From Azolla caroliniana (taxonomy: Eukaryota; Plantae; Polypodiophyta), in NCBI GenBank assembly GCA_043228905.1, contig JBHGNT010000008.1, forward strand, positions 14,942,001 through 15,006,000: 64,000 nt of DNA, read 5' to 3'. Below, in pieces: positions 675 to 58,239 of the stretch. Below the pieces are notes generated by a model that worked only from the letters and a program-made list of their open reading frames with translations, ran no database searches and was not told where the DNA came from. Numbering within the stretch: position 1 is the stretch's first letter; every line of letters starts with the position of its first letter. The translations under genes were made by a program, and so were the position numbers.

Positions 675-695
675 ACCGAGGCAGCACAAGCTTTA

Positions 696-3600: not shown

Positions 3601-4625
3601 TCGTTGATCGACTAACTAAAATGGCTAGATTTATTGCTACTAAAACCACGGTAACAGCTCCTGAATTGGCTTACCAATTCGTTGACGAATTGTTTCGTTT
3701 TTATGGGTTACCGATGGATATCGTGAGTGATCGAGATCCAAAGTTTACTAGTGACTTCTGGACACAAGTCTTTAAGAAGTTAGAAACTACGTTGAGCATG
3801 AGCTCCACGGATCATCCTCAATCCGATGGACAGACAGAACGAGTAAATCAAATTATTGAGGACATGCTTCGAGCATACGTTGGTGCAAAACCAACAAAAT
3901 GGGAACGTTATCTCCCAATTTTGGAGTTTGCTTATAACAGCTCCAAGCATACGTCGACGGGATATAGTCCTTTTATGTTGATGTATGGTTTTCAGCCACG
4001 AGCCCCGATTGATGTTAATATACATCATGATGAGTTGCGAAGTACGCAAAACTTTCTTCAGGATATGCAAGATATGTTGCATATTGCATGAGATAATATA
4101 AAAACAGCTCAAGATAGAGCGCGTTTTTATGCCGATCATCATAGGCAACCTCGTGTATTCAACCTTGGACAGAAGGTATTTTTACGTGTACCTCACAATT
4201 CTAAGACATTGTCTACGGGTAAGTGCGCTAAGTTAGCCCCACGGTTTTGTGGACCTTTTACAGTCCTCAAACGCATTGGGTCATCAGCCTATCGTCTCGC
4301 TCTTCCCGATGGTGTCGGAATTCATCCAGTCTTTCATGTGAGTCGTCTAAAAGAACTTCTAGGTTCTGGCGACAATACAGTTACGACTGAAACTCTGGTT
4401 ACTTCTGAAGAATTATCTTCTAAACCACATGTACCAGAAAGAATTCTCGATGTTAAAACAAAAAAATTACGTACTAAAGAAATCCAAGAATTCAAAATAA
4501 AATGGATGGATAAATCAATAAAAGATGCCACATGGGAACGTGAAAATACTCTAAGAACTAACTTCCCTAACTTTCCATTGCAAGAGTGCAATGTTTTAAA
4601 GAGGGGGAGTATGTTACGGGCATGA
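696..4625 (+). pseudogene. pol: Gag C-terminus and Pol polyprotein (zinc knuckle, protease, RT, RNase H, integrase, chromodomain) with one premature TGA at 4089-4091
   Basis: [14 protein letters not shown]; FDSGSSHNF; [13 protein letters not shown] and FLDDILVYS; TDASDYAIG; [12 protein letters not shown]; PRFCGPF; PERILD..IKW..DATWE. ORF 4209-4625 is in the same frame as 696-4091. Confidence 0.93.
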
Positions 4626-12429: not shown

Positions 12430-14111
12430 TGCCCTTATCTCCGACTCTTTTTGGGATCTACATTGATGAGATCACAGATTTTATTGCTCGTAAGGGAGGC
12501 AATGGAGTAGTCCTTGGAGATACGCAGGTGCGTATCTTGCTCTATGCAGATGACATAGTTTTGCTCTCTGAATCCGAACACGACCTACAAAGGCACCTTA
12601 ATGCCTTAGATGACTTTTGCACACAACGAGGATTGGTAGTGAATCTAGGGAAAACTAAAGTCCTTATCTTCCACATGTCGGCCCAAGTTAGAGCTAAGTG
12701 TCACCTAACTATCTCCCATAGCCCAGTTGAGGTGGTTGGATCATATGTCTATCTCGGAGTCACTTTCAGTGCCCGCTCAGGTAAATTTTCGATGACACAA
12801 GCAGCGAAGGATAGACTTACAAGAGGACATGCATCCCTCTCACTCCTCGAGAGACAATGCCACCAAGCATACTTCCAAGAGCCACGAACTAAAGGGTGGC
12901 TCTTTGACTCATTAGTGACTCCCTCTCTCATGTATGCATCAGCGGTTTGGGCCCTAGGACTACCATCTTTCATGTGGACGCAATTAGAGAGACCATTGGT
13001 GATGATGTTATCACGCCAACTCCGAAGCAAATCGTCGGTCCCACATGACATTATTAGGGCTGAGTTCACTCTACCCCCTATGTTAGTAGAAGCACTTTTT
13101 CAACTGGTAGTCTTTATACACAGGATACATAACCAACCACTTGATAGAATATCCCACCATGCCTTTAAGGCTTCTCGAGCATTGTATGAGTCCGGCTATA
13201 CTAGCTCATGGTATGGCATGATGGTGAGTTGGCTTCTTGCCAACGGTCTAGACATTACTAACCTCCCCCCCCTTAAGTACGACCACACGAATGATAACAC
13301 TTTACTCTCTCATGAGGACCGTAATAAAGTAATACGCCAAGAAATATGGCAAATTTATACCCGGTATAAATGGATCACCCCACTAGAGCCACTCCCATCT
13401 AAAATGTCGTACTATAAGGAACACTTTATGCACTTCTCTGAGTTAGGTTTTATCACGCGCCCAAAATATCTAGATGTATTCTTACCACATGCACTAAGGG
13501 TTGCCATTGGTCAACTTAGAATATCATCTCACCAACTTGAGATTGAGAATGGACGTACTAATGGAGTCCCTAGGGAGGAAAGGATATGTAGGTTATGCCA
13601 CATAGAGATAGAGGATGAGTACCATTTTACATGCAAATGCCCCACCTATGCCGAGATAAGGGCAAAATACCAAGACATACTTGGTTCCTCTCCCACCCTC
13701 CCTAAACTATTAGATACACTAGATATAAAGAAATTAGGTAGATACATCTTAGAATTGAAACACCACAGAGAGAACAAATTACAAAACGTTGATAATAATG
13801 TTGCTAATGTTTACCAACATATAACAAATGAAGTTTTTCAGGAACAGGGGGAGACAATGAATGTCGACACACCTGCACCACTCGGACTTCTCCTTGATGA
13901 AGCAGAAAATCAAAGAAGAACCAAACGCCCTCGGATGCCGGGTTTCAAAGCAACTCGACGAGATGTAGAAGCAATAAAGAAAATAAGGGAACGTGAACTA
14001 CACCGCCTAGAAGCCATGGCTAGGGCACTCTATGCATCGGGACCATGGGTCACACCCACACCAAAAACTTTTGACCTCCCACTTCTTTTTGAGAGACTTG
14101 GGTGGAAATGA
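12430..14111 (+). CDS. LINE ORF2 C-terminal half (RT plus CCHC zinc finger), open frame
   Basis: Uninterrupted part of ORF 12297-14111; the first ~45 aa of that ORF are flanking host-element sequence. Confidence 0.85.
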
Positions 14112-20392: not shown

Positions 20393-23300
20393 TCACTTCG
20401 GCATGGGATGTCTTTCCAGTCCGACCCTCTTCCGGCACGCTTCCAGCTTGTCGGGTGTGAGTACTTTGGTCAGCATATCTGACCCGTTCTCGTCCGTGTG
20501 GATCTTCGTCAGCACGAACTCCTGGTCTTCTATCCTTTCCCGGATCCAGTGATATCTTCGCTGGATGTGCTTCGTCCGGGAGCGATAGGCCGCATTCTTC
20601 GCAAGGTGGATGGCACTCTGACTGTCGCAGTAGAGTCGGTACTCCTCCTGCCGGATACCGAGCTCTCTAATGAAGTCCTTCATCCATATTATTTCCTTGC
20701 CGGCTTCAACAGCCGCCATGTACTCCGCCTCCGTGGTTGACAACGCAACCGTCTTCTGCAGCCTCGACTGCCACGAAATAGCTCCCCCTGCATACGTCAT
20801 CACATACCCTGATGTGGACCGGCTGGTATCTGCATCAGCCGACATATCCGAATCGGTAAAGCCGTCGAGTTCGGGCTAACCGGAGCCGAATCGAAGGCAC
20901 ACGTTTGCCGTGCCCTTCAGGTATCGCAGTATCCACTTGACCGCGTTCCAGTGCTCTTTGCCGGGATTGCTCATGTACCGGCTCACCACTCCGACTGCAT
21001 ATCCTATGTCCGGTCTTGTACACACCATTGCGTACATCAAGCTTCCTACGGCAGAGGCATATGGTATCTTCATCATATCCTCCTTTTCAACCTTTGTCTT
21101 GGGACTTTGCTTGCCGGATAACTTGCAATTTGCCGGGAGGGTCGATCCGACCGGTCTTGCTTCCGACATGTTGAACCGGTGAAGCACCTTTGTCACGTAC
21201 TTCTCCTGTGACAGCCACAACTACTTCTTCTTCCGGTCCCGGATGATGTGCATCCCTAGTATTTGCCTCGCCGGACCCAGGTCCTTCATTGAGAAGGTTC
21301 GGTGAAGCGCGTTCTTCAGCATCCGTATCTTGACCTGGTCCCGTCCGATGATCAACATGTCGTCCACGTACAGGAGGAGTATTAGAGAGTCTCCTCCTTC
21401 GAACTTCTTCACAAACACGCAGTGATCGGACTGCGTTTTGTGGTACCCTTCGTCGGTCATGAAAGAGTCGAACTTCCGGTACCATTGCCGGGGAGCCTGC
21501 TTCAGTCCGTAAAGGTCTTCTTCAGCCGGCATACCAGGTGCTCCTTCCCTTTCTTCTCGAATCCTTCTGGTTGCTGCATGTAGATCTCTTCTTCGAGGTC
21601 ACCGTGAAGGAATGCCGTCTTCACGTCCATCTGTTCTACCTCGGGGTCCATGCTTGCCGCTATGCTCAGCACCGTCCGGATGGAGGTCATCTTCACTACC
21701 GGGGCAAATATCTCGTCGAAGTCGACGCCCTTCTTCTGCTGGAACCCCTTCACCACGATCCTGGCTTTGTATCTCGGGGGGTTTCTGGCATCTCCCGGTT
21801 TCAGCTTGAACACCCACTTGTTTCGAAGTGCCCGCTTTCCTTTTGGCAACTCCACAAGTTCATATGTGTGGTTCTCATGCAGGGAATCCATCTCCTCCTG
21901 CATGGCACTTAACCACCTGCGGCTATGGTTGTCAAGCTTTGCTTCTTCAAAACTCTCCGGCTCCCCTTCGTCGGTTAGCAAAACGTGCTCTGGTTCCGGA
22001 AATCTCTGGGGGGCCCTTCTCTCTCTTAGAGGATATCTCCGTTCCGGAGCTTCGGTAACCGGCTCCTCCGTTTCCTCTTCATCCGAATCCATTTCGGGAT
22101 CGGGGCCGGTTCCGGTATCAGTTTCATCTTCCTCGGCCGGTTCTGTTTCTTCACCGTCTTCGGCCGGATCCTCGAGTGCTAACCGGTCCCTTGCCGGTCG
22201 GGACTGCTCTTCGTAGAGTTGATCCTCACCGGTCGACTTGGAGCTCTTCATCTTCTTCTCCGACTCCCAGTCGGCGAGTGTCTTGTCCTCCATGAAGATG
22301 ATATCTCGACTCCTGAATATCTTCTTGTCGACCGGGTCCCATACTCGGTAGCCGAACTCGTCGTCGCCGTAACCGAGGAATATGCAGGGCCGGGTCTTTG
22401 GATCTAACTTTCCTCTCCGGTCCTTTGCCACATGCACGTATGCGAGACACCCGAACACCTTCAGATGCCGGTAGGACACTTCCTTACCGGTCCACACTTT
22501 CTGCGGCGTGTCTCCGTCCAAAGGTACTGAGGGTGATCTATTTATCACATACGTCGCCGTAGACATTGCCTCAGCCCAAAACCCCTTGGGTAATTTCGCA
22601 TGCGCCAGCATACTCCGGACCCTCTCCATTATGGTCCGGTTCATCCTCTTGGCCAGCCCGTTCAGTTCCGGCGTCTTCAGCACAGTAAACTCGAGCCGGA
22701 TTCCCATCGAACGGCAATACTCCTCGAGTTGCCCTCGGTATTCTCCTCCGTTATCCGCTCGTAGTGCTTTCAGCTTCTTGCCGGATTCCCTTTCCACCCT
22801 CGCGTGGAGTTCTTTGAAGACGGACAATACTTGGTCCTTTGTCTTCAACGGTGCCGTCCACAGCTTCCGGCTGTGGTCATCAATGAATGTCACGAAGTAC
22901 TGGGCTCCGCCATGTGACTTCGTTTCTACTTGACACACGTCAGTGTGCACCAACTCCAATGGTGCGCTACGTCTCGTCGGTGGCCTTGAGTGGAAGGAGG
23001 TTCGGTTCTGCTTACCGGCCAGGCAATCGGTGCACTTCTCCAGGTGCACATGCTTCACTGGAATAAGGTTGTCTTCTGCAAGCCTCTTCATCCCCTTCTC
23101 ACTCATGTGGCACAGTCTCTTGTGCCACAGCTCACCGGCAGTGTCGGCTGCCACGTTCAGCTCCTCCGGACATAGCCGGGAATTCATCAGGTACAGTATG
23201 TTGACATTCCGGGCCCGAGCCACTATCAGGCTCCCTTTGCTGAACTTCATGACACCGTTCCGGATGCTACCCGTGTAGCCTTCATCGTCTAGCCTCCCGG

Positions 23301-24465
23301 CCGAAATCAGGTTCAATCGAACCTCCGGAACGTGTCGAACATCCTTCAGCAGCATCTTGCATCCGGTTGATGTCATCAGCCACACGTCTCCTATGCCGCC
23401 AATCCGGCATGTACCTTCATTTCCCATCCGGACACAGCCGTGCTCACCGGCTGTGTAGGATGAGAAGTATTTCTTCCCCGGGGTCAGGTGGAACGACGCT
23501 CCGGAATCAACCACCCAGGTCATCTCTTCACCGGCAAGGTTCAGCTCCCTCTCTTTGGTAATGAGCATTATCTCTTCTTCACTTGCCGCGAGTGCCGTCG
23601 TTCCTTTCCGGTCCTGCCCTCGCCGATCCGGACCTCTCCGGTCCGTGGCTCCCCGGTATGCACCGTTTCGCTCCGGTGACTTCTTCGAATCGGTACCGTC
23701 GGTTCCGTTGTCTTTCCGGAAATGCCGACAGTTCTTCTGGAAGTGCCCCGGCTTCCCACAGTAGAAGCATGTAGGTCTTCCCCTCGACTGCGACCGTGTC
23801 CCCGACTTCTCCCGTCTTTGCGGACTCCGGTTCCGTTGTCTTCCCCGTTCCGATTCGGTAAGCAGCGCCTTCGAGTCGGAGGCCGATTCTTTATCTCTCC
23901 GACGCGCTTCTTCATTTAGAATACTTGTCTTTACCGTTAGTAAAGACAAGTTCTCTTCCTTACAGGAGGTGCTGAGAGTAACTACCAACTTCTCCCAGCT
24001 CTCCGGAAGGGTACACATCAGCATGATGGCTTGCATTGCGTCATCCAACGGGAACTTGATCGCCGCAAGCTGGTTCACGAATCCCATGAACGTGCTGACG
24101 TGTTCGACCATGCTCTCGCCGTCCCGGTACTTAAGATTCACTATCTTCCGCATCAGGGAGGTCCGGGTCAGAGCATTCTTCCTCTCATACAGTCCGGACA
24201 GCTTCTGCCACATCTCATAGGCATTCGTATCGTTCGCCACATGTTGCAGAACACTCACATCTACATATTGCCGGATCGTCGCTACGGCTTTCCGGTTCAG
24301 GAGCTTCCACTCCGACTCTATTACCCCCTTGGGTATCTCTGCATTGTCGATCGGTTCGTACAGGTCTCGGACGATGAGAAGGTCTTCCATCTTTATCTTC
24401 CAGTCGGCGTAGTTCTGTGAGTTCAACACCATCATGCCCGGAGGCTCACTACCGCCGCCTTCCAT
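20393..24465 (-). pseudogene. Copia Gag-PR-INT-RT-RH polyprotein with one frameshift (~21510) and two stops (~21221, ~20876)
   Basis: CFYCGKPGHFQKNC; WVVDSGASFH; LWHKRLCH; ADNGGEY; YKARIVVKG; LLLYVDDML; TKHIQRRYHWIR. Confidence 0.95.
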
Positions 24466-24956
24466 TTTCTGTGTTAACCTCGCTCTGATACCACTTTGTC
24501 GAAAACAGCGCTCGGCCACAACCGAGGAATAGGATCAACTCACAGAAAACAGGAAATACAAAATGCTCGAAGACAATAGAGAGAAGAGTACACAGGATGT
24601 TTTACGTGGAAAACCCTAAATGGGAAAAACCACGGGAGTCCTCAAACTCCAACTATCACTATACACAGAGATGTACAATGGTGAAGCTACAAGGCAACAA
24701 CCTTGAGCTCACTGTCTTCGCCACAGGCGGCGGCAATACACAGAGGAGTCGACCTCTTCCTTTCTCTCTCTTTCTCTCTCTCTCGGCTGCTCTCACTTCG
24801 CTCTCTCGGCTAAAACATAAAATGAGCAACAACAAAAACTGTTTGCCCTAAGTCATATTTATACAACATATGACTTTCGGGCTATTTACAAATGTAGCCT
24901 AGAGAGCTCTTGGCAAACATATTCACAAATATGTCCCCGCATCCGGATCTCTCTCC

Positions 24957-29539: not shown

Positions 29540-32500
29540 GATTTCGGATACGGTGATCAATCAGATTCTTCCACGTCTGTCCTAATACCTTCATCATCGA
29601 GGTGGTCAAGGTCAAGATCTCCGTCTTGTCTTTTCTTGAAAATCTTTACTCTTTTCCCCGCAATGGGTATGGCCAACCTTGATCCGTCTAGCTCCGCAAG
29701 GTGGTATGTGGCATTATCGTTGGCATTTGTCACCACATACGACCCGAGCCATCTTCTTGCGAACTTTCTTGTTGTACTGTGTTCATTGTCAAGGCTACTA
29801 TCATAGACCAATACCCAATCTCTTTCTTCGATCTTCTTGGGACGCAGTCGATGCGTCTTGTCAAACCGAATTTTGTTCTTCACTCAGGCTGCCTCCATCA
29901 TCTTTCGCTCTTTTTCTAGATCTTCAGGTCTTCTCTCAAGTTTTGTTATCCGTGCCACTAATAACTCTTCTCGGCTCATCTCGTTCTCCCATGGTATCAC
30001 TACCCATGAGGGGATCGTCCTTTCGATGGGTATTACCAGCTTTTGTCCATACATAAGCTCTGTTGGCATATACCCATCACCGAGTTGTGTGTCGTTTTGT
30101 CAGCCCACAAGGTATAGGGCAATAGTCGTGGCCAATTCCCAGCTCGACCGTTGCATGCTTGTACGATGGCTTTGACGATAGGTTCATGCCCTCGCTCGAT
30201 CTTCCCATTCGCTTCTGGATTGTAGGCAGTCGTGAGGGAGAGCTTCACACCTAGTCATTTGAAAAGCTCTGTTTCTTCGTGTGCATCCAACTCCCCTCAA
30301 TCAGTGACTATCTTTTTCACACATCCGTATCGGCAGACAACCTCTTCGAGTACAAATTTGCAAACAACCAACGTCATCTTATTTGTCAAGGGACGTCCTT
30401 CCACTTGATTTGTCAAGTCTTCTCTTGCCATGTCTAAGTACTTCATTTGTCCCACTCCCATTGGCATTGAGACCAGATCCATTATCTATTTGAAGTGTAT
30501 GGTGAGCGGGTATGTCGGTCGTAGCTCATCACGATGACGTATATTCGAATGTACTTGGCATGTTTCGCATGTGGACACGAAATGGAGTACATCTTTGTAC
30601 ATGCTTTGCCACCAGTACTTCTCCTTCAACTTCTCGAACATCGCCCATGTTCCTCTATGACCTGCCCAGGCACTTTCGTGGAATTCAGTCATTAGCGTCA
30701 CTTGCTCTTCTTTCTTCACCACCACTCGACGTGGTATTCCTGTCCTTCTTTTTAGGTGTCTCCAAAGGAATCCTCCCTTTAAGAAGTATTGGTATGCTTT
30801 CTTCCGGATTCGTCGGGCCTCCTCCTTCGTCAACGAAGCATCCGTCGTCATCGTTCTTAGGAATCTGCTGATTAGTAACCACTCCCCTTCGTACTCGTCC
30901 TCATTGAAGGCGTGGAGGGTTAGCGTGTCCTTGTCTTCCACCGATAGTCGGGCCATCTTGAAGAAGTCAAGGGTGGCGTCTTCATCTTTCGAAACCATGT
31001 CACTTTCATTCTCAAATATTTCCCTCGACAGCATGTCATCCATGGCGTTCTTCTTCCCTGCAATATGGCAGATCTCTAGGTTTAAAGACTTGATATAGGG
31101 GATCCACCTTAGCATAGGTAGATCTAGTGTCGCACATCCTGAGATTATCCTGAGGATTGGGAGACAATCTGTCTCAATTATTACTTCTGACCCGATCAGG
31201 TAGTCTTTGTCCGTCTTTACTGCCGACAAAATACCCCAAAGTTCTCGGTTGACTTGAGCGTATCTTTGTTGTCGTTCGCTGAGAACCTTTGCTCTGAACT
31301 GGATGGCATACCATGCATTATCTTCTCCTTCTTGGTTGATAACCCACCCGATTCCGGTTGGGCTCGTATCTACAGTCACATAAATCGGCTTTCCTTCGGT
31401 ATAGTCGGCCTTTCTTAGTGCTGGAGCTTCAAGAAGTAGTTTCTTCAATCTTCGCATCGCGTTTGTGTGCTCATCTCGCCATTCGAACTTCATTCTTTTC
31501 TTTAGCAATCCATATATAGGCTCGGTGAAATGGGCGTAGTGTGGAATCCAGATACGATAAAATGCGCATGCTCCAAGGAACCTCCGAACCTTCGTTTGGT
31601 TTACGCATTCTTCTTTCATATCTCGGATCGCGTTCACCTTGGATGGCGAAGGCTTCCGGCCATATGCTCCGCACAAGTGACCTACCACCAAGATCTCTGG
31701 TTGCCCGAATGCGGAATTTTCTCCCGAAAATATCAAATTCGCATCTTCGAGCCTTTGGAGCACCTTCTCACAATCTTTCATATGATCCGCGACGAACTTT
31801 CTACACCCTTCCTTATCTATCGATTCATCTTTCTCCTCATCCGAACATCCTTTTATCGGAATATCATCCAAGAACGGTATCGTGATGTCCGGGATGCAAT
31901 CCTTCAAAACCGTGTTCATCGCATTCACCATATGAGCCATCGAGTTCGTTGCACCTTGAGGTAAGGTACACATCCACACGAGCCCAATTGGAGTCCTCAT
32001 GGTTGTAATGTCACGACTGTCAATCGCCAACTGGAATTGGTCGTATCTAGAGTAGAGATCACCAATGGAGTAGATGGATCGCCCCGCAAACGCTTCGGCA
32101 AATTCTTCCACGCTCGGACCAATTCTAGCATTCCGAATTGCCACCTTGTTGACGGGTTGAAGATCTTGGATGAATCGTAATGATCCATTCTTCTTCGGCA
32201 CTATGAACCACCTATTAGAATAAGGAGAATTCGACGGTTCCAGAATTCCCATATTCACCTTCTCCTTTAAGAGCTCGATCAACTTCAGTAGTTGTGCTCT
32301 CGGAACCGGTATCGGTTTCAAATTGCAAGGTACGTGCGGCACAGTGAAGATCACCATCGGCTCTATCGTCCTTGGATCAGCACATCCGATTTCTTGTGGG
32401 AAAAATGCAAAAGCCTTCCCATGTCTTTTTCTCTTTTCTTCGATGAACACCTTGTGGTTGTCGCACATCACTTCTGCAAGTATGGTGTTGTCATCCACCG

Positions 32501-33660
32501 GATCCGACCACCCGGTTATGCTTTGCATGCTTTGGTCCGCAAGCTCTACCTCATTCGATGTGACCTTCCCCATCTTCTCATACTCGAGAACGAAAGACCA
32601 AAACTTTGCTCCCACTTTCGCAGCTTCATTTTTGTCTTTCCCAACTCTTATTCCGGCCGTTGAAGCATAGTGCATCGCATCCACATGAGTCGCCTCAACA
32701 TCTTCCATAGATTTCTTCATTCCCCCTCTTTTGAAATTCACCCGCAGGGATCTTCAAGTTTCAGTCGAGCAGATCATGTTGTCATCCATGTATACGATAT
32801 TTTGTTAGATCGTCTCTCGAAGGCTCGCGCAATCCCTTCTCCTGTGTTCCATGCTATCACACCACACGCATCTAAAGGGTTCTTTTCCTTTGGGGCCCCG
32901 ACGATTCATGTTAGCTAGCGTGACCATCTCAAACTTCTTCCTAGCCCCGGGCTGCTTTGTTTGGGTGGCTCAACTACTTTTGGTTGTCTTGTTTTCTCCG
33001 CGACAGTCAATCCCGCCAAGTCGGTGTCATCAACCCACTGACAACGTTTGTCGAGCCTATTGCATGCTTGCTTCACCGCAACCCAGTCCGCCACAAGCCC
33101 GTTCACTTGGGTATCATCTTCGAGGAGAGTACCCAGTTCTCATCTATCCTTTATATCCACAGCCTTTAGGAAGTACAAAGTTTTGTCCTCCTCAATTAGC
33201 ACTTGGTCTGTGGCAGGGAGACGACGAAACATTTGGTCGAATTCGTTGTACACCCTCGAGGTGCTCATCTTCTTATTCTTCTTTTCTATCCACTTTATCA
33301 ACTCATGTCGAGTCATCCTCGACAAATCTTCCGTCGCAAACTCCGTTAATATCGCTTTCTCGAAGTTCGACCACGTTGTTTACCCTTCTTGAAGCTCGAT
33401 GACGCACCTTTGGATGTTATTGGTGACCACTCTCTTGAAACTCGTGATTTGACGCGCTGCAGACACGTGCCTCTGATTCATCTCCCTTCTTATGCATCAA
33501 GCAACTTCATAATGTTCCTTCCGTCAAATTGACCCTTGAGCTCAACGACACGATCGACAATCGTCTCCATGCTCGCATTGTTGTCTCAAGATCTCATCAT
33601 TTGTTCGACGATCAGCATCATCCTTTCGAACTCTCCCGCTTGATGACTTGAGGGTGCCAT
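29540..33660 (-). pseudogene. Decayed gag and RT-RH-INT; protease region appears deleted
   Basis: FIQDLQPVN, LPQGATNS, PFLDDIPIKG, VDTSPTGIG, HESAWAGH..CETC, YNPEANGKIERGH, RWLGSY. Confidence 0.9.
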
Positions 33661-36612: not shown

Positions 36613-37444
36613 TAGCATCAAGATACATGACTCATTGATAGTGACAATCTTCCATGTCAAACTTTACCTAAACATTTTATCCCCATTGAATGGTCGTCAA
36701 GACTGTCCATTTGTTAATTGAGACCGGTTGTCGAGACTGTCAAATTGTGTCTAATATTATGGTTCTTTGTCTTCTATTGCTGCTTAGAATGTGTAATGTG
36801 TTTATAATTATCAAACTATTATGTTTGTTTCTCTTCCATTGCTGCTTAGATTGGGTAGTGTGTTGATAATGGTCGATGCCACACTATTCCATTAGTTGCA
36901 CAACCTTGGAGTACACCTCTTATCAATATCCACATGTTTCATACGCTTGTCCTTCGGAGTTGGATTTCATAAGAATCACCTAAGGATTAGATTGCATCAA
37001 CTTTAAACACAAGTATTGAAAGCCTTAATAAGTTTGTTATTTCAATCACATTATTCTAAGGTTCACTATAATCGCATTGCGAACAATTATATACATACGA
37101 GTATGGGTCAAACTATAAATTATAACTCATTTTATTAACATGGATACAATTACACCTCATATTTTTTGTCTAACTTACCAAACAAATATAAGTCTTCATC
37201 TGAGTGTTTGCCATGTCGCACAAAAGTGTGGTATTGAGCCATTGTTGAACTTTATTATAATCGCATTAACATATCAACAATTCCAAACTCAACTGAATTC
37301 ACGTGTTCTCCACTCGAAGACCTATCATGTTTTATTAATTTTGTAAATTCTAATCCAGTTGTGGAACATGTAATACTAGTGCATCCAATTTTTGTAGATA
37401 GGGTATATTTGGATATTTACAAAAGGAATCTACAACTGGAATGC

Positions 37445-39602
37445 GATTTCGCCATCTATAGCCGGGAGGAGGACCATTTTCAGCACCTCCGTCTCTTGTC
37501 TAGAAAAGTGTAGAGCATACCGGCTAAGCTTGAATCCGGCAAAGTGTGTTTTTTGGCATGTCCAGTGGAACTTTATTAGGACATATTGTGAGCCAGGAAG
37601 GTATTGTAGTCGACCCGGACAAAGTGAAAGCCATATTAGAAGCACCGGCGCCAGCAACGGCAAAGGCATTAAGCCGGTTCTCAGGCCAGATCTGGTGGCA
37701 CAACCGGATGCTCCGATACTTGGCCGACCTGACTACACCATTGCATGCTGCCGTACATCGAACACCATTCCAGTGGACCGACACCGAGGATAGGGCGTAT
37801 AGGGCCCTCAAGGTACTATTGTCGCAAGCACTGGTAGTGCAGCCTCCGGATTGGAGTAAAGAATTTCATGTGTTCGTGGACGCCTCCGACATCGCAATCG
37901 GAAGCGTACTGATGCAGCTTACGGAGCCAAAGTGGTACCGGCCAGTGTACTGATGCAGCTTACGGTGTCCAAAGTGTCACTCACCGGTAAGTTGGCCCGG
38001 TGGACCTTAATGTTACAGGAATTCGAGTTTGAAATATTCCACCGACCCGGTATACAGCATGCCGTGGCGGATTACTTAAGCCGATTAGAGTCCGGAGAGA
38101 CGGGTGACGGAGTAGTTGATGAGTTTCCGGATGCAGAGCTGTTTCGAGTCACTACGGAAACGGCAGCAGATGAGACGGTGGCACAAGAAGACAAGTGGCT
38201 CACAAACATGCACCAGTTTCTGAGCACAGGACTGCCTCCGGAAGAGATGAACCGGGACGAAGGGAAACGCCTGGCGGTGCAAAGCCGACATTTCTGCTTA
38301 CTGCAAGACACACTTTACCACAAGGGCGCGGACGGCATATGGAGACGGGTTGTGTGCAACAATGAAAAGGACCTGATATTGAGGAAAGCCCACTGCGAAG
38401 TTGCCGGAGGTCAATATGCCGGAGATGCGACGGCCAGGAAAATATGGCAAAGTGGCCTATGGTGGCAAATGACATTAAGAGATGCGGTACGGTACGCAAA
38501 AGAATGTGACCTATGCCAGCGAATGGGCCAGCTAACGGAGCAGGCTCGTATGCCACACCAGCCGGTACTACCACTCGAGCCATTCCAGAAGTGGGGGCTA
38601 GACTTTGTTGGACCGTTCAAACCACCGGCAATGAGAACGAGTAATCGGTACGTTATCGTCGCGACGGATTACTGCACGAAATGGGTGGAGGCCAAAGCCT
38701 TAAGAGACAACACCGCTGCGTCAACGGCGAAATTTCTATACGAGTACATCTGGTGCCGTTACGGATGCCCAATCGAATTAATAAGTGACCAAGGGGGGCA
38801 CTTTCTCGGCCAAGTAGTTGAAAGCCTGACAACATTCTATGCCGTTGTCCATAAACGGAGCACACCATACTATCCGCAAGCAAACGGGTTAGCGGAATCG
38901 ACGAACAAAACGCTCCAGAATATCCTCCGGAAGATCGTCAACGAAAACCGAACGGATTGGGATACCAAGCTACATAGCGCGCTTTGGGCATACCAGACGG
39001 CATACAAAACGAGCATCCGAACAACACCGTTCCGGTTAGCGTTCATACTAGAGGCGGTAATGCCGGTGGAATTCCAAGTACCCAGCTCACGGATCCAGCT
39101 ACGGGAACGGCTGAACGAGAAGGAGTCGGAGGCAATACGGTTAACAACGTTGTGTGAACTCGAGGAACAACGACTGGCAAGCATCCTGCACTTAGAATTG
39201 GAACAACGGCGATGGAAAGCATTTGTCGACCGGCACAAGAAAGGAAACGAAAAAATGTTCGCAATCGGCAAACCGGTGTTAGTATTTCAGACCCGGATGG
39301 GCAAGATGCCGGGTAAACTACGGTTTAGATGGACCGGACCGTATTGGCTGACACGTGAGTATAATGGGTCCTACCAGTTAGGGACACTTGCCGGCGAAGT
39401 GCTAGGCAAATGGGTCAACGGATTCCGATTGAAGCCATATAAAGGACCGATGCCCAAAAACCCATTTGAGCAAAGGACCGACACTGGTGCGGAAACGGCA
39501 ACCTATGAGGAAAACGGCAACCACCAAGACGGCAGAGACGGCGAGCCAGTAACTGGGGAGAATGAGGCCGGTAAGGGTCCGATAGGACCAAAGAACAAGT
39601 AA
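37445..39602 (+). pseudogene. pol: RT C-terminus, RNase H (internal deletion) and integrase
   Basis: LNPAKCVF, LLGHIVS, VDASDIAIG, KWGLDFVGPF, TDYCTKWVEA, ISDQGGHF, PQANGLAE, RWTGPY. Confidence 0.92.
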
Positions 39603-39987
39603 CGTCACATTTATAAATAATATAAAATAAAATAAAAATAAAAATAAAAACGAAGTATTCATGCAAAAGCGAGGAATGAATGGACGAAAGAGCGAGGCGC
39701 GAAAAGGTACGTAGTGGGCATTTAAGTGCCACCACAGGACATAATGTTATTTTAGTACACGACGTGCACACACTCGAAAAAGGCGCCAGAATGCACAGAG
39801 AAAAACCACTACGCATGGAGACCCTTTACTTTCGCGAACCGAGGAGCACAGAAGCACCAAGGCGCTGCAAGATCATCAGATGAGAACCTACACATAGAGA
39901 ACCCCCGCCTTCTGAACTCTCTCTCTCTCTCAATCTCACTCTCATCACCATCCAACCTCGCCACCGCAATCCGGCCTCAACACAGAC

Positions 39988-42775
39988 ATGGACCCGCAAA
40001 CGTTGTCGGAAGCCGCCAAGACATGGCTAAAGCAACACGGGCTCGAGGGCTTCTTGATGATGATGGAAGTACCGCCACACAAAGAAGCCGACAAGGTGAT
40101 CAAAGAAATCGACACAGAGGTCATAACGGCGGAAGCGATTCGAGCATTTACAGGCCTTCCGGAGGGAGGCATACTCACGATTGACAATCCGACCTCGGAG
40201 CAACTCATAAGGTATTTTGGTGAGTACTCCCTAGCCAACAAGGGCTACCGGACACAGGGCGGCGGAGATATGTTGTTCCGCTAGATTGCTCGTGTGCTCC
40301 ACGAATACGGCCATGTGTACCCTAGACCCCCTGTCATGCTGCAAAACCGGGTAGGGATGATCATCGTCACCTATGAAGGGATCAAGGTGGATTGGCCGGT
40401 ATTGATCGCAAACGGGTTGTGTGCGGCGATCGAGATCGTCAAAGGCAAAGACGGCAAAGAAGGCCGAGACGGACAGAGGATACGGCACGTCGTAACGCAG
40501 TGGCTCACCCGTCCAACTCGTCCAGCCCAAGAAGCGAGGAAGAGTGGCGGACGGCACCCCAAAGACGGCTTCCAAAAGACAACAATTGTTGGCCTCTAAG
40601 GCCACTGAGGGGAAGGCGGCGGATGCAGAACAGGCGGGAAAGGAGAGCGGCAGCCGGAAGCGGCCAACGGATGCGCAGGAGGAACCACCGACACGGCCTG
40701 TAAAGGTTACATTCCGTCGACCGGTGAATCGAGAAGCGGACCCCTTGGCGGCAAAACTCAATGCCGGGACTCAGGAAGAGGAAATAGAGGAGGAGCCTAC
40801 GGAGGACCTCCAACGACGGTCGTTGGCAAGGACCGTTGAGGCAGTCGGGAAATGTTCGGACCCTCAGACGGAGGGAACACCTGCTCCCCATACTGAGACT
40901 CCCACGCCAAGGGAAGAACCGGAACCGGTGCGCATGGCATCGGAATCAGAAGCCCCGGCACCACCGGCAACACCGGCAAGTCCCATCCCGCCAGAGCCGG
41001 AAAGGTCAATGCAGCCTCCCTCGGCCAACCAAGAAGAAGCGCAAGGGGAACCAAGATAGCAGGGTGGTCCACGGGCTGAAACGGAATTGCAACTCGGCGC
41101 AATCAGGCGGGACCACCCATCTACGAGCGAGCCCATCTGTCAAACCTCCGTGCAAGCACAACAATGCACCGGTAGCCTGTGGCTCCGGTGGATAGGCGAA
41201 CAGATTTCCGAAGTAGTGGGGTATATTGAGGCGGAAGAAAGAGCGCAAAGCGAACGGTTGCTCGTCACAACCGAACAACTAGAGACGGGCCAGTCCAGAA
41301 TCCGGTGCCTTGAAAAAGACTTGGATCAGGTCACCGTAGAGATGGCCAAAATGGCCTTAACGGCAACACAGATCCAATCACTGGTGACTCCGGTAAGTGT
41401 ACAGAATAAAGAAACAGATCGACCTGTACATACCAATAAGACCCCGGCAACGAAAACCGTTCCGGCGAGAGATGCGGCACAAGCCCAGGAGCTTGCGGAA
41501 TTGAGAGATGAACTTGCCGCACAAGAAGTGCTAAGGAGCCGTGAACAGGAATTGAAAACAGCGGCCGAAGCCGAATTAAAGAAGACTGCTGAGAACCTCC
41601 GCAGGGTAGAGGAGAGCCTCCAGAAAGGCCATCAAGCGTACGACCGGCTAAGGGAGGAAAAAGACAAAGTGCTGCAGGAAAAGGACAAGCTGCGGAAGAC
41701 AGCGGAAACGGAAATTGAACGGCTAAAGGAAGAGCTCCGCCAGTAGAAGGACCGCGAGGACCGGGCACGTCGACAGATCAATGCACGACTCAAGCAAAAG
41801 ACGGATGATTTTGAGCACCTGCACCGGGACTACAAACAACTGGAAACGGAGCATAAGGAACGGATGGCCGAGCTCCAACAGGAAGTTGATCGGGCCGTGA
41901 CGGCGATCGCCGACGAATGTACGGAAAATACAAGACGGTTGGACGAGGCGGAGAAGGTCTGGATGGAGCTCCAGAGGCAGCAGCAAGAAGAAAAGGAGAG
42001 AGCATCAACGGTATTGCAGAAATTACAAAGCACATATCAAAGGCAATTGACGCATTACAAGGAGCAGGCGGAAGACAATGTCAAAATCATCAAGCAACTG
42101 AAGGAGGAACAACAAGTGGCGGAAATCAAATCGCAATTGGGAACGTGCCGGATTCAGTGCATCCTCCAGGCATGGCTGAATCAGACAAAACGCTTGATTG
42201 ACGAAAGCTCCGTAAGATGGTGGACAAAGTGGGCACAAAATGCGGTGGAACTCCAATTGGTACGGGCATACGTGGCAAACCGGCGGAAGGAAGGAGATGA
42301 TTGTTATACGTTGACTTCCGAGGACTTCACCACCATACGGGACGAGCTGGCCGACGACTTCCAAGTCCTGGCGGATGAATAGCTAGCGTAGGTCTGGCAA
42401 CTCGTAGCTCAGCTAGACGATGATAGTTTGGACGTTCAAATCCAGTTTGAAAGCTACGAGCGGTCCCGGGTTCGGGAAGAAAAAGCACGGGAAGCGGCAA
42501 CAGTTAACCTTAGTGATGAGGAACCGTCACCGGCCGAGGGCCAACCCGGAACCAGTCAACCGGAGACCACTACGACGGAGGGAGCAACGACGGAGACATC
42601 GGTATCAAAGCAACAAATGGAGGAGCAGCCGCAGCAGCCACCAACGGACCCGTCGCAGCAGACATCAACAGAGCAGCAACAACAACCACAACAACAACAA
42701 CAACAACAACCAATTCCAGATGAACCATTGGAGACTCTTGAACAAAGCATTCTAGATATTTTGGACGAAGAATAG
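39988..42775 (+). pseudogene. Extra ORF downstream of pol: globular N-terminus, Pro/Glu-rich linker, long coiled coil, poly-Q acidic tail
   Basis: Chain of plus-strand ORFs 39988-40284, 40294-40599, 40544-41059, 41087-41746, 41864-42382, 42428-42775, mostly separated by in-frame stops; heptad E/K/Q/L composition. Confidence 0.7.
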
Positions 42776-42926
42776 CAAGGGTCGGTTGTGGATTCGACGT
42801 ACAAGGTACTGTCCCACGGGCGTGCCATGTGTTACCGACCGGCAAAGGAGTCCAGAGTGTGAAACGGGGAGTTATTTAATTAGTAGGAATGGTTGTAAGT
42901 AAGCTATGAGTGTGGACGGACGGACC

Positions 42927-44706
42927 GGAATGGGACGTGTTCACAGTTTCCAGTTTCCAGAGAAGCAACACGGAAAAAGTTGGAACCAGAACAAGAGTTG
43001 GTTGGCACCGAAGCGGCGGTAATGGCCGGGCGGCCGTCAGAGTAGACAAAGCCGAAACAACAACAGTGACGCCGAAAAGCGACAGACGGAGAGACAACCA
43101 TCAGATATCAACGGCTGACAACCGGATGACGACTGAACAGACCGGCCAAGTGACTACAGACCGGCCGGACAGGGCCGAAGAAGATGAGAGAGGCTTCAGG
43201 AATGGTCATCACCAACCGACAGCAGCCGGAGCGGCCGGAGGGCCAGACAAGGTCAGGGAAGCAGACAGGCCGCCAGGATGACCGACGGTGTCGGACGACG
43301 ACGAAACCGATAGACGGTGATGGAGTCCGCAACGGAGGCAGCCGGAGCAACCGAGAGCCGAGGAGCGGCCAAAGCAGCCGGAATAGCCGACCAGTGGCCG
43401 GAGTGGCCAGATAGGCCTGGACAGAGACAGAACCGGCCACAGCGATGGCGGTGGCTGAACAATCGACGACCGGATCAAAGATGACGCTGAAACGAAGGGC
43501 CAACCAGACACACACAACAACAAACGAGGCATAGATGGACAGAGACGACAACCGATCGGAAGGAGATACACCAACATGGAGATGGCCAGACATCGGACGG
43601 ACTAATGGCGGAAACGAAATCGTTGCAACGTCTCGATAGGCGGCCGGAGACGGAGCCAAAGATAGAGATAAAGATGGCGACGACGCAAGACACCGGTGAC
43701 CGGATGACGGTCGAAACGGTGACAAAGATGGACGGCCGACAGAGGCAACGGACGACGACGATGATTGCTGGACGAGGCCAAGCGATGGAAACGATGACGA
43801 CAACGGAAACAGAGATGGCAACGATGATGGAGACATCGACAGCCGACTAGCAGTAGGCAAACAACCGACGGAAGAGATGGTCGATGGGAGGAGAAAAAGA
43901 AAAAGCAGCAAACGATGCCGGAAACAGCGATGGCAGTAGAAGAAGAAAGAAGAAGAACAGAAATGAACAAGAAGAAGAAAAACGCAGACCAAAGCAACAC
44001 GAAAGAAGGAAACAGAGAGGAGGAGCAAAGCAAGATTCAGGCACTAGAGATAGAGGCATGGACAGAGAGAGAATCAAGCGGGAGAATCAGAGGGAGAGAA
44101 GAAGCAGAAGGAGACACAGATAAACAGGAGGAAGAGAAGAGAGAAGAAGACAAATACAGAAGGGAAGGTAAAAATGACCTAAAAGCAAAAGAGAGGGAAA
44201 AAGATAAAATAGGGGTATGAGACAAATTTTGAAACCCTGAGGGTATCGAGTAAAATTTCAAAAACTGGAGCGTACATAATTAAAATTTTAAAAATCAAAG
44301 GGCACCTACGAAATTTCGAAAACTCATCAACCTAAAAGAAATGGATGTGATCGACACACAACTCACAAAATCAACAAAAGGAAGATACACATACACACAA
44401 CATTTTTGGACCCATGATATCAATGTTCGTGAACCGACAGAACGAGAATGTTCGTGTCGATGAAGTCGCTGACCGAAGGAGATATTCGAGTCAAGCGCTC
44501 CGATCGAGGGAGTCGATCGTTGAGAAGACCGATGGAAGTTCCGGTCGAAGAAATATCATCATCAAGGCATGTGGGATCGGCATGTGGGATAGGAGGAGGT
44601 ATGAGTGAGTGTCCAGTATGAATGCTCTAGGGGGCTTACACCCCTTTGTATCTACCCCCTCTTGTACTATTTAACCCCCTTATGGGGAATGAATGAAAAA
44701 TGAATC

Positions 44707-44745
<39 letters not shown>

Positions 44746-44800
44746 CATCTCTCTTCCTATCTCTCTCCCTCAACGTTGAACCCCCTTGGGAGGGGGGTGG
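42927..44800 (+). mobile_element. Family X copy 2: non-coding repeat-rich segment and LTR fragment
   Basis: Same block order as 11150-14935; CTATTTAACCCC near 44667 followed by (CT)n. Confidence 0.5.
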
Positions 44801-45213
44801 AGCCATTCTAGGCACCACCCCCCACCCCACAATGCTTCTCAACGATTCTCAACATCTTCATGCCAATCTCTCTTACCATCATACTCTCCATTATCTTCGC
44901 TATTACGCCATGTCTATCTTTGTCATTGATAATCATCATCGTCCTTAACGACCCCCCTTTGGAGACGGAGTCGAAGAATGATACGCGACAATGTGAGGCA
45001 TAGTGATGATGATATGTAAGAGATGTCCGGGTAATGATGGCGATATGCAGCAAAAGGCGGAAGAAATCAGAAATGGAAGATTGACAAGATTGACTGTTGC
45101 ACAATTCTACAACGAATTAATCTCTATATGTGAATGTTTTGTGTGGTCTGTTTTTGCCCTAAATGTCCGAGAAATGTTGGCCAAGATGTACAAAAACGGT
45201 GCCATCCGCACCT

Positions 45214-47555
45214 TGGCCATGCCCTTCGACCTTGTGGTCACCTGCTGCAGATCTGCCACCTCAGGGACTACCATATTACTGCCGGTCGTTTTTCATAGCT
45301 CTTCACCGGGCATTGATTACTATAATGACCTTCCTGTCAGCAGTAGTAGCAGTAGGCTTTCCGGGTATTGCTGGATTCGGCATTATCTGTTGTACCCGAG
45401 GCAGGTCCTATGGTAAGCGCGGGGTTTTGGGCCGGTTGGCTGCTTGAAGCTCCTTGTTCCGGATCCCGTGGGTAGCCGTCTTTTTTGAAATGCCATTTTC
45501 TGTTATAGCTCTTCTTATTGCGGTACTCTTGACGAGGTTGCTCGTTATATCTTTTGTATTCCTCCCGTTGCTGACGATACCCAGGGGAGTGCTCCCGGTC
45601 GTAATGTTCGTATCGTCTATTGTAATCCTGGTACCGATCATATCTATCATGCTGGTCATAGTTATCCCGCCGATCACCGTACTAGACATCATTCTCCCGT
45701 CGGTCGCCATACCGGACATCCTGTCCCGGTCGGTCGCGGTCCATTCGCCGCTAGCGTTCCTCTTCTTCATCCTGGCTGCTGCGTGGCTCTATTTGTCGGA
45801 CGGGCGGTGCTTGCCGGTTCAATAGATTATACTCGCACCTATCCGTCGTATGGCCCTTGGATTGACAGATTACACATTGCGTCCTCATAGTGCATTCTAG
45901 AGCCGAGTGTCCGGAATTCAAGCAGGTTGTGCACTGTATTGCTTGCCGAAACCAGAGGTCTTCATCGGACGGTAACGCCCGTTGGAGTGCTCCTAGTGTG
46001 AGCCAGGAGCTTGTCTTTTCCATCTCTCTCACCCGGTCAATGACCTGGTCGATGGTACTTGTGCAGAAGTCAATTACCATGCAAACCGTGCGTAGGGGTT
46101 CCCGGACCGCATTTAGGAATATAGTCCGTAATTCCTCCTCCGGGGGTGCGCGGGCAAGCTGATTATGCATCCGTTGAAACCGGATGACAAACTGGGGAAT
46201 GCTCTCCCCTGCCTCCTGTCAGATGGTATAAAATAAGCCCACCATTACGGTTTGGTCCACCTCCTTTTGGAAAAGTGCAAGAATTTAGCTTTTAAATATG
46301 CAAAGGTGGTGATGGTAGACGGGTCCGGCGTCCGGCGCCATCTTGCTGCCGGTCCCTCCAATGTGACGCCAAATTCCGCTATCTTAGAGCGTTCCTCTTC
46401 TTCTGGGGTCAATCGCTGGGACACATGGTTGGCTTCCCATGTCTGTTCGAAGGCGTGCACATGAGCTTCCGCGTCCGGATCATCTCTATACTTGGAGTAC
46501 TGGAACGGCGTGTCGTCGTCCGGTATCGGTGCGCGGGCTGGTAGTGTTGGTGCTCGTTCCAGGATTTTCTCCGGCGTCGGTGGTCTTTCCTCTTCTTTTG
46601 GTGACGGAGGCCTCTCCTCTTCGACTTCCGGTGTCGGAGGTCACTCTTCCTCTGCTGGTTCCGGAGGTTCCAGCCTTAGCACTTCCGGTTCCGGTGTCGG
46701 TAAGGTATCCGATCCTTTGTCCTCCGGTCCACCCGGGGTTTCGTTGCTGCTACGGTAGTTCGTGTGCACGCTGTATTCTCCTTCGGAGTCCGATTCATAT
46801 GCTGAAAAGGCTTCTGCTTCGCCTTCTCCATTTGCCAACGCCTGGAGAAGGGATTCGGTTTCTCGGAGGCTGCTTAGGTTGCTGCCGTCGTCCGGGTGCG
46901 ATGTTTGCTGTAACCAGAGGGAGTCCTCCGCTACTCTCCGGATTACGTTGGAAAATGAGCGATCCGCTCTAATTTCCTGCGTTGCTTGCTGGAAAGCCTC
47001 ACGTCTCCTTTGCCTTTCGGCAAGGCGTCGAGTTCGATCTGGAACCAGGTCGTGCGTTGATCTAGTCATCCATTCGTGTCGTCGTTCGCTGCAAAAACAG
47101 GAATTGTGGTGGCCAAAAACTGTGTTAACTCTTAGGGCCGGACAATGGCCTAACACAGGGTGTCTACGGAAGACACTTCACCAAAGGGGTGTTACGGCAA
47201 CAGGATTAGACTCAACGATTAATCCGACTTAATTAGGTTACTTAGCATGATCGTCTTTAATAATCACACGCGTAAGATATAACAATGAATACAGAACGAC
47301 AATTAACATAGAGAGATAACAATACTAAGCTTTATTAATTAACCGTTGTTCATTACATTGTATCCGGGCCTTTAAATAGGTTTCCGGTTTGTATTACAAA
47401 ACGGTGCCATCCGCACCTGTTCGGGATCGGTCCGGATCCGGAACGGCATACCGATTATGGTCCGTCCGTCCACACTCATAGCTTACTTACAACCATTCCT
47501 ACTAATTAAATAACTCCCCGTTTCACACTCTGGACTCCTTTGCCGGCCGGTAACA
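45214..47555 (-). mobile_element. Family Y 5' half: 5' LTR 47121-47555, PBS-like TGGCCACCAC, decayed gag
   Basis: Minus TGTTACC...AACACA; TATA CCTATTTAAA 47380-47371; AATAAA near 47335; gag ORFs 46641-47156, 46245-46460, 45751-46170 (two zinc knuckles). Confidence 0.85.
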
Positions 47556-56890: not shown

Positions 56891-58239
56891 TGTCGCGAAA
56901 ATACGACGAGGACATGCAAACTTGAGGCAGGACCCCGGGGCCTCCAACCAGAGGATAATCACATTTGTGCGTTTATATTTTTAACAATTAACAAAAAGAA
57001 GAAATTTAATAATTTTCATTAACAAAGGAAAAAGAAATTACAATATGTCCCAAGATTGGGATTTAGAAGTTTTAGGTTTACTAAGATTAATAGAAAAGAA
57101 AAATTAGGGGTTATGAGTATTATGGCTTCTGTAGGGAAGATTAGGATTAGGTTATATGAGTATTATGGCTTCCGTAGGGAAGATTAGGGTTTTTGAGTGT
57201 TATGGATTCCGTAGGGAATTTTAGGGTTTATGAGAGTTATGGCTACCCTAAGATAAGGGAGTTGAGAAGAAAATTAAGATAATATGGAGAGTACCCTCTA
57301 GTGTAGGAAAAAAATTAAATAAATATGGAGTTCTCCCTTGATCATAGCCTTTCCACTTTTTGTTGCATGGCCTCTACTTTTAGTTGCCTAGCTTTTTCTT
57401 TTGGTTGCATGTGACTGTCCACATGACCTTTACTTTTTCCATGCACTCCTTCTTTAGTTGCTTGCGTCCACATGGCCTTTACTTTAGTTCTCTTCACTTT
57501 AATTTAGTTTGTTGCATGATCCAATCTTTCGTCCGTCCGCGTCCAACCTCGTCTGGTAGCCGGTTCCATTTTGCTTGCCGGTCGATTCCGATTTTGCTTG
57601 CCGGCCGGTTCCGGTTTTGCTTGGCGGCCGGTTCCGGTTTTGCTTGCCGGCCGGTTTCCAGTTTTGATTGCCGGCCGGTTCCGGTTTTGCTTACCAACCG
57701 GTTTCCGGTTTTGATTGCCAGCCGGTTCCGGTTCTACTTCCCGGCCGGTTCCGGTTTTGCTTACCAGTCAGTTTCCGGTTTTGCTTGCCGGCCGGTTCCG
57801 GTTTTGCTTACCGGCCGGTTTCCAATTTGAATACCCATTGCGGTTCCGGTTTTGCTTGCCAGCCGGTTCCAGTTTTGCATACCGGCCGGTTTCCGGATTT
57901 GCTTACCGGCCGATTTCCGGTTTTAGGGAATTTGGCCACCATCATCCATCAAGACAAGGTGGCCAAAGTGCTCTTAGCACAAATGAAAAATGAGGGAGCT
58001 CAAGGTGCTTATATAGCCAGGGCCTTAAGTTTCCTATCTATGTGGGATAGTTCTAATTTTTCCTATCTTCTCAAACTTTATTTTCACATAACTTGATATG
58101 TATTTCTCCATTTTGTATATAGTAAAATACGTTTTGAAGCTCTTGAGTATATCCATCTTTCTATAGTAAGATACTAATCTAATCTATAATAATTATTTCA
58201 TTATTATTTTTTACATAATGTGTGAAGATTCACATGACA
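56891..58239 (-). mobile_element. Solo LTR with perfect TSD ACGT, containing two minisatellites
   Basis: TGTCGCG...CATGACA; ACGT at 56887-56890 and 58240-58243; right arm homologous to 17840-18058. Confidence 0.88.
57555..57925. repeat. ~20-bp minisatellite CCGGCCGGTT(T)CCGGTTTTGCTT(G/A), roughly 17 copies
   Basis: Directly visible head-to-tail array. Confidence 0.9.

Follow-up and report, generated by a model that had tools for sequence, protein, structure and literature searches.

Organization of the retrotransposon pieces in the window

The 64-kb stretch of Azolla caroliniana DNA analysed here (the window) contains two broken pieces of one family of LTR retrotransposons, which lie in opposite orientations and are separated by part of a non-autonomous relative. 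The plus-strand piece (37444-42934) is the 3′ half of an element of approximately 10 kb, and the minus-strand piece (45211-47555) comprises the 5′-most quarter of a second family copy. The plus-strand piece begins with the 3′ part of pol (37444-39602, plus strand), which encodes the end of the reverse transcriptase (RT), RNase H, and integrase, as identified by matches to the Pfam families RT_RNaseH, Integrase_H2C2, and rve. This segment is 93-95% identical to full-length copies of the family, and its RNase H is broken near position 37950. It is followed by an extra open reading frame (ORF) in the sense orientation (39988-42775, plus strand), the pieces of which are interrupted by stop codons and frameshifts. 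The start codon of the extra ORF was chosen by eye, a Pfam search with it gave no match, and all of its matches in the ESM Atlas score below 0.9. A related family, designated X, contains an 875-residue ORF at the equivalent position (L196:6028-8655), which has no Pfam family above the cut-off, a C-terminal half resembling a coiled coil, and a weak ESM Atlas lead to clusters of the plant mobile domain (0.82).

The 3′ LTR of the plus-strand piece starts with U3 at 42830 and is cut off at 42934; the retained part (42830-42934, plus strand) is 95% identical to 47555-47451 of the second copy. The inserted piece that follows (42935-45210, plus strand) belongs in part to the non-autonomous relative, with 81-86% identity to L142. 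It includes the internal end of this relative (44268-44579) and an LTR-like segment (44580-44934), and its own copy of the tRNA-like block described below has been deleted. The second family copy comprises the 5′ internal region with a broken gag (45211-47102, minus strand; 92-95% identity to the 5′ parts of full-length copies), an ordinary 13-nt primer-binding site (PBS) located 7 nt past the LTR (47103-47115, minus strand), and a 433-bp 5′ LTR extending from TGTTACC to GTTAACA (47123-47555, minus strand). An earlier note on this DNA had delimited the LTR as 47555-47121. The LTR is real; however, target-site duplications (TSDs) place its end at 47123. A TATA-like site (47378-47371) and an AATAAA signal (47336-47331) are both on the sense strand. 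The PBS-like TGGCCACCAC of the note is a mutated copy, with two changes, of the family PBS TGGCGACCACGAT, 13 nt that match the host tRNA-Arg(UCG).

ARAGORN identified no tRNA gene in the window. Other elements of the window are two more gypsy pol regions, an ORF encoding only RT, a copia polyprotein, and a tandem array of 23-24 nt units (together at 675-4091, 12285-14111, 21502-24534, 30486-32753, and 57563-57937).

A tRNA-like block in the position of the polypurine tract

A polypurine tract (PPT) before the 3′ LTR is usual, although not universal, in Ty3/gypsy elements. At this position, the plus-strand piece contains a block composed of two boxes. Box 2 (42786-42797, plus strand), with the sequence TTGTGGATTCGA, is by sequence comparison a copy of approximately positions 47-58 of tRNA-Arg(UCU), corresponding to the 5′ strand and loop of the T-arm. 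A 13-nt spacer (42798-42810), inserted at tRNA position 58/59, contains a 4-bp hairpin (GTAC/GTAC). Box 1 (42811-42827, plus strand), with the sequence GTCCCACGGGCGTGCCA, contains 17 of the 18 nt that end mature tRNA-Arg(UCU), CCA included, and is separated from the LTR start at 42830 by the dinucleotide TG (42828-42829, plus strand). The host tRNA-Arg(UCU) genes carry 3′ sequences matching the block. One C of the last 18 nt of the tRNA is missing from box 1, and box 2 differs from the T-arm in one base.

The window 3′ LTR is not preceded by a purine tract: the longest purine run in the preceding 20 nt is 3, as compared to 7-8 at the same place in an outgroup family. The earlier note had proposed that the 3′ half of a tRNA-Arg(UCU), split at position 58, stands here instead of a PPT, and both the location and the match to host tRNAs bear this out. 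There is no other conserved primer candidate next to U3 in the neighbourhood of the window LTR. Box 1 is likely to be an antisense primer-binding site, as predicted from its sequence, at the position of the PPT, and the minus-strand complement of box 2 is predicted to pair with the tRNA.

Genome-wide pattern searches covered the 523-Mb assembly. The block followed by two nucleotides and TGT was matched 1,723 times and a looser pattern 2,108 times, whereas the reversed controls gave 0 matches; therefore, the block is not a product of chance. Inspection by eye of the first 100 matches of the looser pattern classified 98 as block-like and two as unrelated. Two blocks that seemed to lack the hairpin are unrelated sequence. 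The spacer between CCA and the LTR is two nucleotides long in most families (TG, GG, AG, CG, or TC), and non-autonomous and deleted copies retain the block. The block is a real, conserved, and unusual feature.

Distribution of the block among retrotransposon families

Forty LTR loci of the window family were scored, and the best 30 of the 40 were retrieved; they comprise 17 5′ LTRs, 11 3′ LTRs, and two solo LTRs. Among these best 30 loci, the block stood before each of the 11 3′ LTRs and before none of the 17 5′ LTRs, and the 5′ LTRs were followed by CAGTTTT and a PBS. Matching 5-bp TSDs flank six of seven LTR pairs, and the TSD-flanked elements account for six of the block-bearing 3′ LTRs. 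In full-length copies, gag-pol reads away from the PBS and towards the block. The earlier note had considered that the block may be a relic PBS of a separate antisense element, with a normal PPT in intact members of the family. This does not hold, because copies flanked by TSDs have the block but lack a PPT, and the block is therefore not a chimera with a joined antisense element.

The approximately 2,100 copies of the block belong to several families with unrelated LTRs. In family X, a degenerate block precedes 9 of 9 3′ LTRs, and nine LTR pairs have TSDs. The families L129/L138/L127 and W share the block design with unrelated LTRs, and the block is also present in a 2-kb non-autonomous element. 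Families X and W have non-wobble changes in box 1. The LTR pairs of family W (L290-L293) are 100% identical, a sign of what is probably very recent insertion. Integrases of block-bearing families with unrelated LTRs are 68-75% identical, and in an integrase tree of 122 rows every block-bearing row falls into one clade of 29 (support 100/97). Among named integrases, those of a fern and of liverworts are the nearest.

The outgroup family from the same genome, the integrase of which is 46-48% identical, has a G-rich PPT in five of five LTR pairs among eight loci; we take its PBS to be of the tRNA-Asp type. The presence of this PPT-bearing outgroup suggests that the PPT is ancestral and was later replaced, and makes the switch from PPT to tRNA traceable. 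A search for a nearer PPT-bearing sister clade (query P0017) gave top matches of 59-61% identity, and the two that were inspected belong to family W of the same clade. A metagenome scan yielded 82 stretches, from which 80 blocks in 78 loci were parsed, nearly all of them followed by two nucleotides and an LTR start; the assemblies bear close identification numbers and may represent one host lineage, and the scan therefore does not demonstrate a wide host range. The integrase is in the sense orientation upstream of the block in seven of the nine metagenome contigs with an integrase match. The feature is confirmed to be lineage-wide.

The elements have the direct LTRs with TG...CA termini and the 5-bp TSDs of Ty3/gypsy retrotransposons. 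The domain order gag-PR-RT-RH-INT is provided by Pfam matches in two unbroken polyproteins of related families together with the window pieces, and the 5′ LTR is followed by a 13-nt PBS with a match to tRNA-Arg(UCG) or (UCU) of the host. No additional archaeal-type RNase H (aRH), which characterizes the Tat lineages TatI-III, Ogre, and Retand, was matched in the two polyproteins by Pfam at E ≤ 0.05. The lack of an additional RNase H and of a chromodomain, together with the 3′ extra ORF, agrees with Athila (OTA). Athila elements typically have a tRNA-Asp PBS, and a part of them carry the Athila ORF1 domain. By contrast, the PBS of the block-bearing elements is of the tRNA-Arg type, and the ORF1 domain PF03078 was not matched. 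The elements are non-chromovirus Ty3/gypsy retrotransposons, probably near Athila or the aRH-less basal Tat branch, a placement that relates to an integrase tree built without curated REXdb references. The domain order, 3′ extra ORF, absence of an extra RNase H and chromodomain, 5-bp TSDs, and a PBS offset from the LTR are shared with Athila and aRH-less basal Tat elements of the OTA superclade, as far as the available sections of PMC6317226 and PMC13468544 describe them. Unlike these elements, the block clade has no PPT, has tRNA-Arg sites at both ends, and lacks the Athila ORF1 domain. One supplement file of PMC6317226 contained no match; the element tables of this paper could include members of the clade.

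The ordinary primer-binding site and host tRNAs

The PBS corresponds to tRNA-Arg(UCG) in some related families and to tRNA-Arg(UCU) in others, whereas the block is UCU-like throughout. The block retains the Arg(UCU) type even in families whose PBS is of the Arg(UCG) type; its identity therefore does not follow that of the PBS, and a general role in pairing with the element's own PBS was rejected. A full 18-nt copy of tRNA-Arg(UCG) and then a jump come after three of the 17 5′ LTRs of the window family. This is the usual fossil of a minus-strand primer, given that RT halts at m1A58 after copying 18 nt of the primer tRNA (PMC13191261, available sections).

The PBS varies across three isodecoder-like sequences, which may reflect methylation decay. 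Long copies of tRNA-Arg(UCU) at U5-type ends of L112, L117, L118, L120, L146, L149, and L286 record read-through of the minus-strand primer, and one of them covers the entire tRNA. At L105, L107, L109, L113, L121, L156, L279, and L283, which belong to a family that is probably non-autonomous, a second box beside the PBS approximates the complement of the tRNA anticodon arm. The genome also contains tandem arrays of genes for tRNA-Lys(UUU), in some of which the anticodon has become GTT, tRNA-Arg(UCU), and tRNA-Ile(UAU) (G000:C5:17987927-17993943; C11:693747-703394; C2:20108306-20111379).

Predicted pairing of tRNA-Arg(UCU) with the block

The last 34 nt of tRNA-Arg(UCU) were cofolded with the minus-strand block, with RNA:RNA parameters standing in for a tRNA:DNA hybrid. 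The predicted complex is a three-way junction in which the spacer is looped out as a hairpin, with an energy of -38.3 kcal/mol under these parameters. The corresponding value for 500 shuffled sequences is -9.2 ± 3.2 kcal/mol, and none of the 500 reaches that of the real block. Box 1 alone provides -22.2 kcal/mol, and box 2 contributes about 16 kcal/mol. Six different fully paired stems occur among 34 distinct spacers. The inner hairpin pairs 2 and 3 covary, with 29 and 32 of the 34 spacers paired, respectively, and 0 of 10,000 permutations equal this, although the counts include related sequences. The hairpin is located at tRNA position 58/59, where m1A58 is unable to pair. An apparent wobble bias (77 wobble-type against 0 other transitions) is not counted as evidence: several positions were fixed by the search patterns, and CpG decay is a further confounder. 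C56-to-T occurs in about six of the first 100 rows listed for the looser pattern (hand count).

Two boxes for the acceptor stem and the T-arm, separated by a loop, recall the bipartite or extended PBS of Ty1 and Ty3; in those elements, the genomic RNA boxes are the complement of the tRNA and function in minus-strand synthesis (PMC5371799, available sections). By contrast, the block in RNA is identical to the tRNA, and pairing is possible for the minus strand alone: cofolding of the tRNA with the sense strand gives only about -10.8 kcal/mol, so that the 3′ box is not complementary to the tRNA in genomic RNA as it is in a Ty3-type PBS.

The block could instead act in the genomic RNA itself, by surviving RNase H digestion and priming the plus strand as a CCA-ended mimic of a tRNA. 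Such a primer would have the same geometry of CCA, two nucleotides, and LTR, would require no second tRNA, and would keep the usual logic of PPT priming. However, the sense RNA of the block is not T-arm-like and folds no better than shuffled sequences (z -0.27), as is the case for the block folded alone as DNA or RNA, and the G53-to-A change of the window family would disrupt the T-stem of the mimic. This explanation also leaves open why the block is invariably of the Arg(UCU) type where the minus-strand primer is tRNA-Arg(UCG).

Copies of tRNA at LTR junctions

All 59 exact 18-mers of tRNA-Arg(UCU) with CCA were examined and placed by a script. Twenty-two are located at U5 ends and seven at U3 starts, and an eighth U3-start copy (L285) was confirmed separately. 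Another 16 match non-autonomous LTR variants and look U5-type, 11 with A-rich spacers of 5-11 nt are unplaced, one is a tRNA gene, and one is an ectopic join into gag. The eight U3-start cases represent five independent events, in each of which the tRNA copy is joined through the spacer of its own family.

The clearest case is a full element at G000:C20:881284. Host DNA is followed there by 167 nt of U3, an exact 18-mer that belongs to another isodecoder (CCAGG), TG, and the 5′ LTR; the PBS is of the Arg(UCG) type, and past gag-pol a regular 17-nt block precedes the 3′ LTR. The TSD of this element is imperfect (AATTA/AAATA). The 18-mer differs from both the minus-strand primer and the block of this element, and it occupies the site at which a plus-strand primer would be attached. 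Two identical head-to-tail junctions of family X (G000:C16:17527333) consist of the U5 end, T, an exact 18-mer, AG, and U3. They differ from the family's own degenerate block, with the caveat that the minus-strand primer of family X is the same tRNA as the junction copy. At least two of the five events (C2:12004220-12017976 and C3:8094145) are at the position of a 3′ LTR, where template switching fits equally well; even these would imply pairing of tRNA-Arg(UCU) with the nascent minus strand at the block. The rare accidents at junctions are the best evidence, at the level of sequence, for the tRNA as a candidate plus-strand primer. They resemble the tRNA copies between the LTRs of murine leukaemia virus (MLV) circles (Colicelli and Goff, cited in PMC12220202, available sections), where a mature tRNA copy at an LTR junction is likewise read as a primer fossil. 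However, the MLV copy marks the minus-strand primer at U5, whereas copies in the block clade also abut U3.

The junction copies could alternatively have arisen if RT changed templates to a co-packaged tRNA at stretches of identical sequence. If the primer were a mimic released from the genomic RNA, they would be such template-switch accidents, and the fact that just five junction events face about 2,100 blocks favours that account. Nevertheless, the head-to-tail junctions, although very few, contain the exact tRNA in every case and the block of the element in none, and together with the folding results this renders a mimic unlikely.

A TSD-flanked (CTTCA) chimera at G000:C3:8087110-8094710 (L103, L143) consists of an inverted segment from a sister family enclosed by non-autonomous LTRs; an 18-nt PBS meets a sense block at the join, and the tRNA copy before the 3′ LTR carries 7 nt of the block spacer. 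Similar inverted joins of a block and a U5-end PBS are present at L102, L110, L144, L150, and L153. These fold-back products look like a recurring cost of tRNA-identical sequence.

Polarity of replication

The two-nucleotide distance between the block and the LTR is the classic spacing of a PBS, and replication could in principle proceed through an RNA antisense to gag-pol, in which the block is the true minus-strand PBS. The conserved one-nucleotide deletion in box 1 is compatible with this, since the primer tRNA does not serve to restore the PBS in Ty1 and Ty3 (PMC5371799, available sections); for the same reason, the deletion is weak evidence of polarity and was given up as a proof of it. 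By contrast, the TATA-like and AATAAA sites are on the sense strand, the spacing at both ends parallels that of the outgroup PBS and PPT, and 18-nt tRNA copies occur frequently at U5 ends (3 of 17 5′ LTRs; 22 of 59 18-mers) but rarely at U3 ends. The promoter-like signals and the excess of 18-mers at U5 ends appear to weigh more than the conserved deletion, and antisense replication is highly improbable. The opposite end of the element is also without a PPT; therefore, the second strand would need a tRNA even under antisense replication. It is improbable as well that the ends are symmetric enough for antisense transcripts to be additionally copied and integrated.

Proposed model of DNA synthesis primed by two tRNAs

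The block with its site, sequence, and conservation is confined to a clade of elements that have an ordinary PBS at the opposite end and, rarely, tRNA copies at U3 junctions. Dual tRNA priming would explain the place, sequence, and hairpin of the block and the junction fossils. It is quite probable that plus-strand synthesis starts from tRNA-Arg(UCU) annealed to minus-strand DNA. Among the three options raised by the earlier note this one is the best supported, and we infer the priming from genomic fossils; the options of a tRNA mimic and of an antisense RNA have both been weakened and are less likely.

Replication would start with minus-strand synthesis at the PBS, with tRNA-Arg(UCG) or (UCU) as the primer. 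Once the first jump is complete, RT would copy U3 and the block, and the RNA would be cleared by RNase H. The exposed DNA could then pair with nucleotides 76-59 of the tRNA, with one bulge, and with nucleotides 58-47, with the hairpin looped out and the T-arm opened. The CCA end would be extended, starting two nucleotides from U3. The tRNA would normally be removed by RNase H, and the spacer trimmed by integrase. If the removal failed, the minus strand would copy the tRNA, halting at A58 or reading through. A tRNA:DNA hybrid is an expected substrate of RNase H, and we speculate that the bulge and the junction may help it to survive.

The evidence is wholly comparative, and binding alone would account for the conservation of the block and for some junctions. 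Thus, tRNA-Arg(UCU) could bind the block to position or pause RT, or the block could be a kept relic, while the plus strand begins from a short product of RNase H. However, the 3′-OH of the bound tRNA would sit two nucleotides from U3, in the position of a primer, the block site has no other conserved primer candidate, and the block is retained in non-autonomous and deleted copies, which makes a role other than priming very unlikely.

Priming of both strands by tRNAs would share with Ty3 and HIV-1 the tRNA-primed minus strand, the copying of 18 nt up to A58, and a plus-strand primer end that adjoins U3 (PMC5371799 and PMC13191261, available sections). Unlike in Ty3 and HIV-1, the putative plus-strand site of the block clade is an antisense tRNA-binding site and not an RNase H-resistant purine tract. 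The earlier note knew of no precedent, and no description of a tRNA-primed plus strand was found in the literature that was searched, including the available sections of PMC10085805, PMC12486564, PMC12220202, and PMC13332604, a body of text to which most subscription papers do not belong.

Implications for LTR retrotransposons

Priming from a PPT is regarded as shared by retroviruses and LTR retrotransposons. The analysis probably describes a recently active clade of plant LTR retrotransposons that lacks a PPT and uses two host tRNAs, often with different anticodons, to prime the two strands, the second of them on DNA through a three-way junction stabilized by a hairpin. If confirmed, this would be a new priming step within an otherwise familiar type of element. 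A successful clade with a second tRNA in place of the PPT would mean that plus-strand priming can be rewired, and would raise the question of how RT extends a DNA-bound tRNA without its destruction by RNase H. The supply of host tRNAs and tRNA fragments would gain a second point of control over the elements. Annotation tools that expect a PPT, or that orient elements by their PBS, may overlook or invert such retrotransposons.
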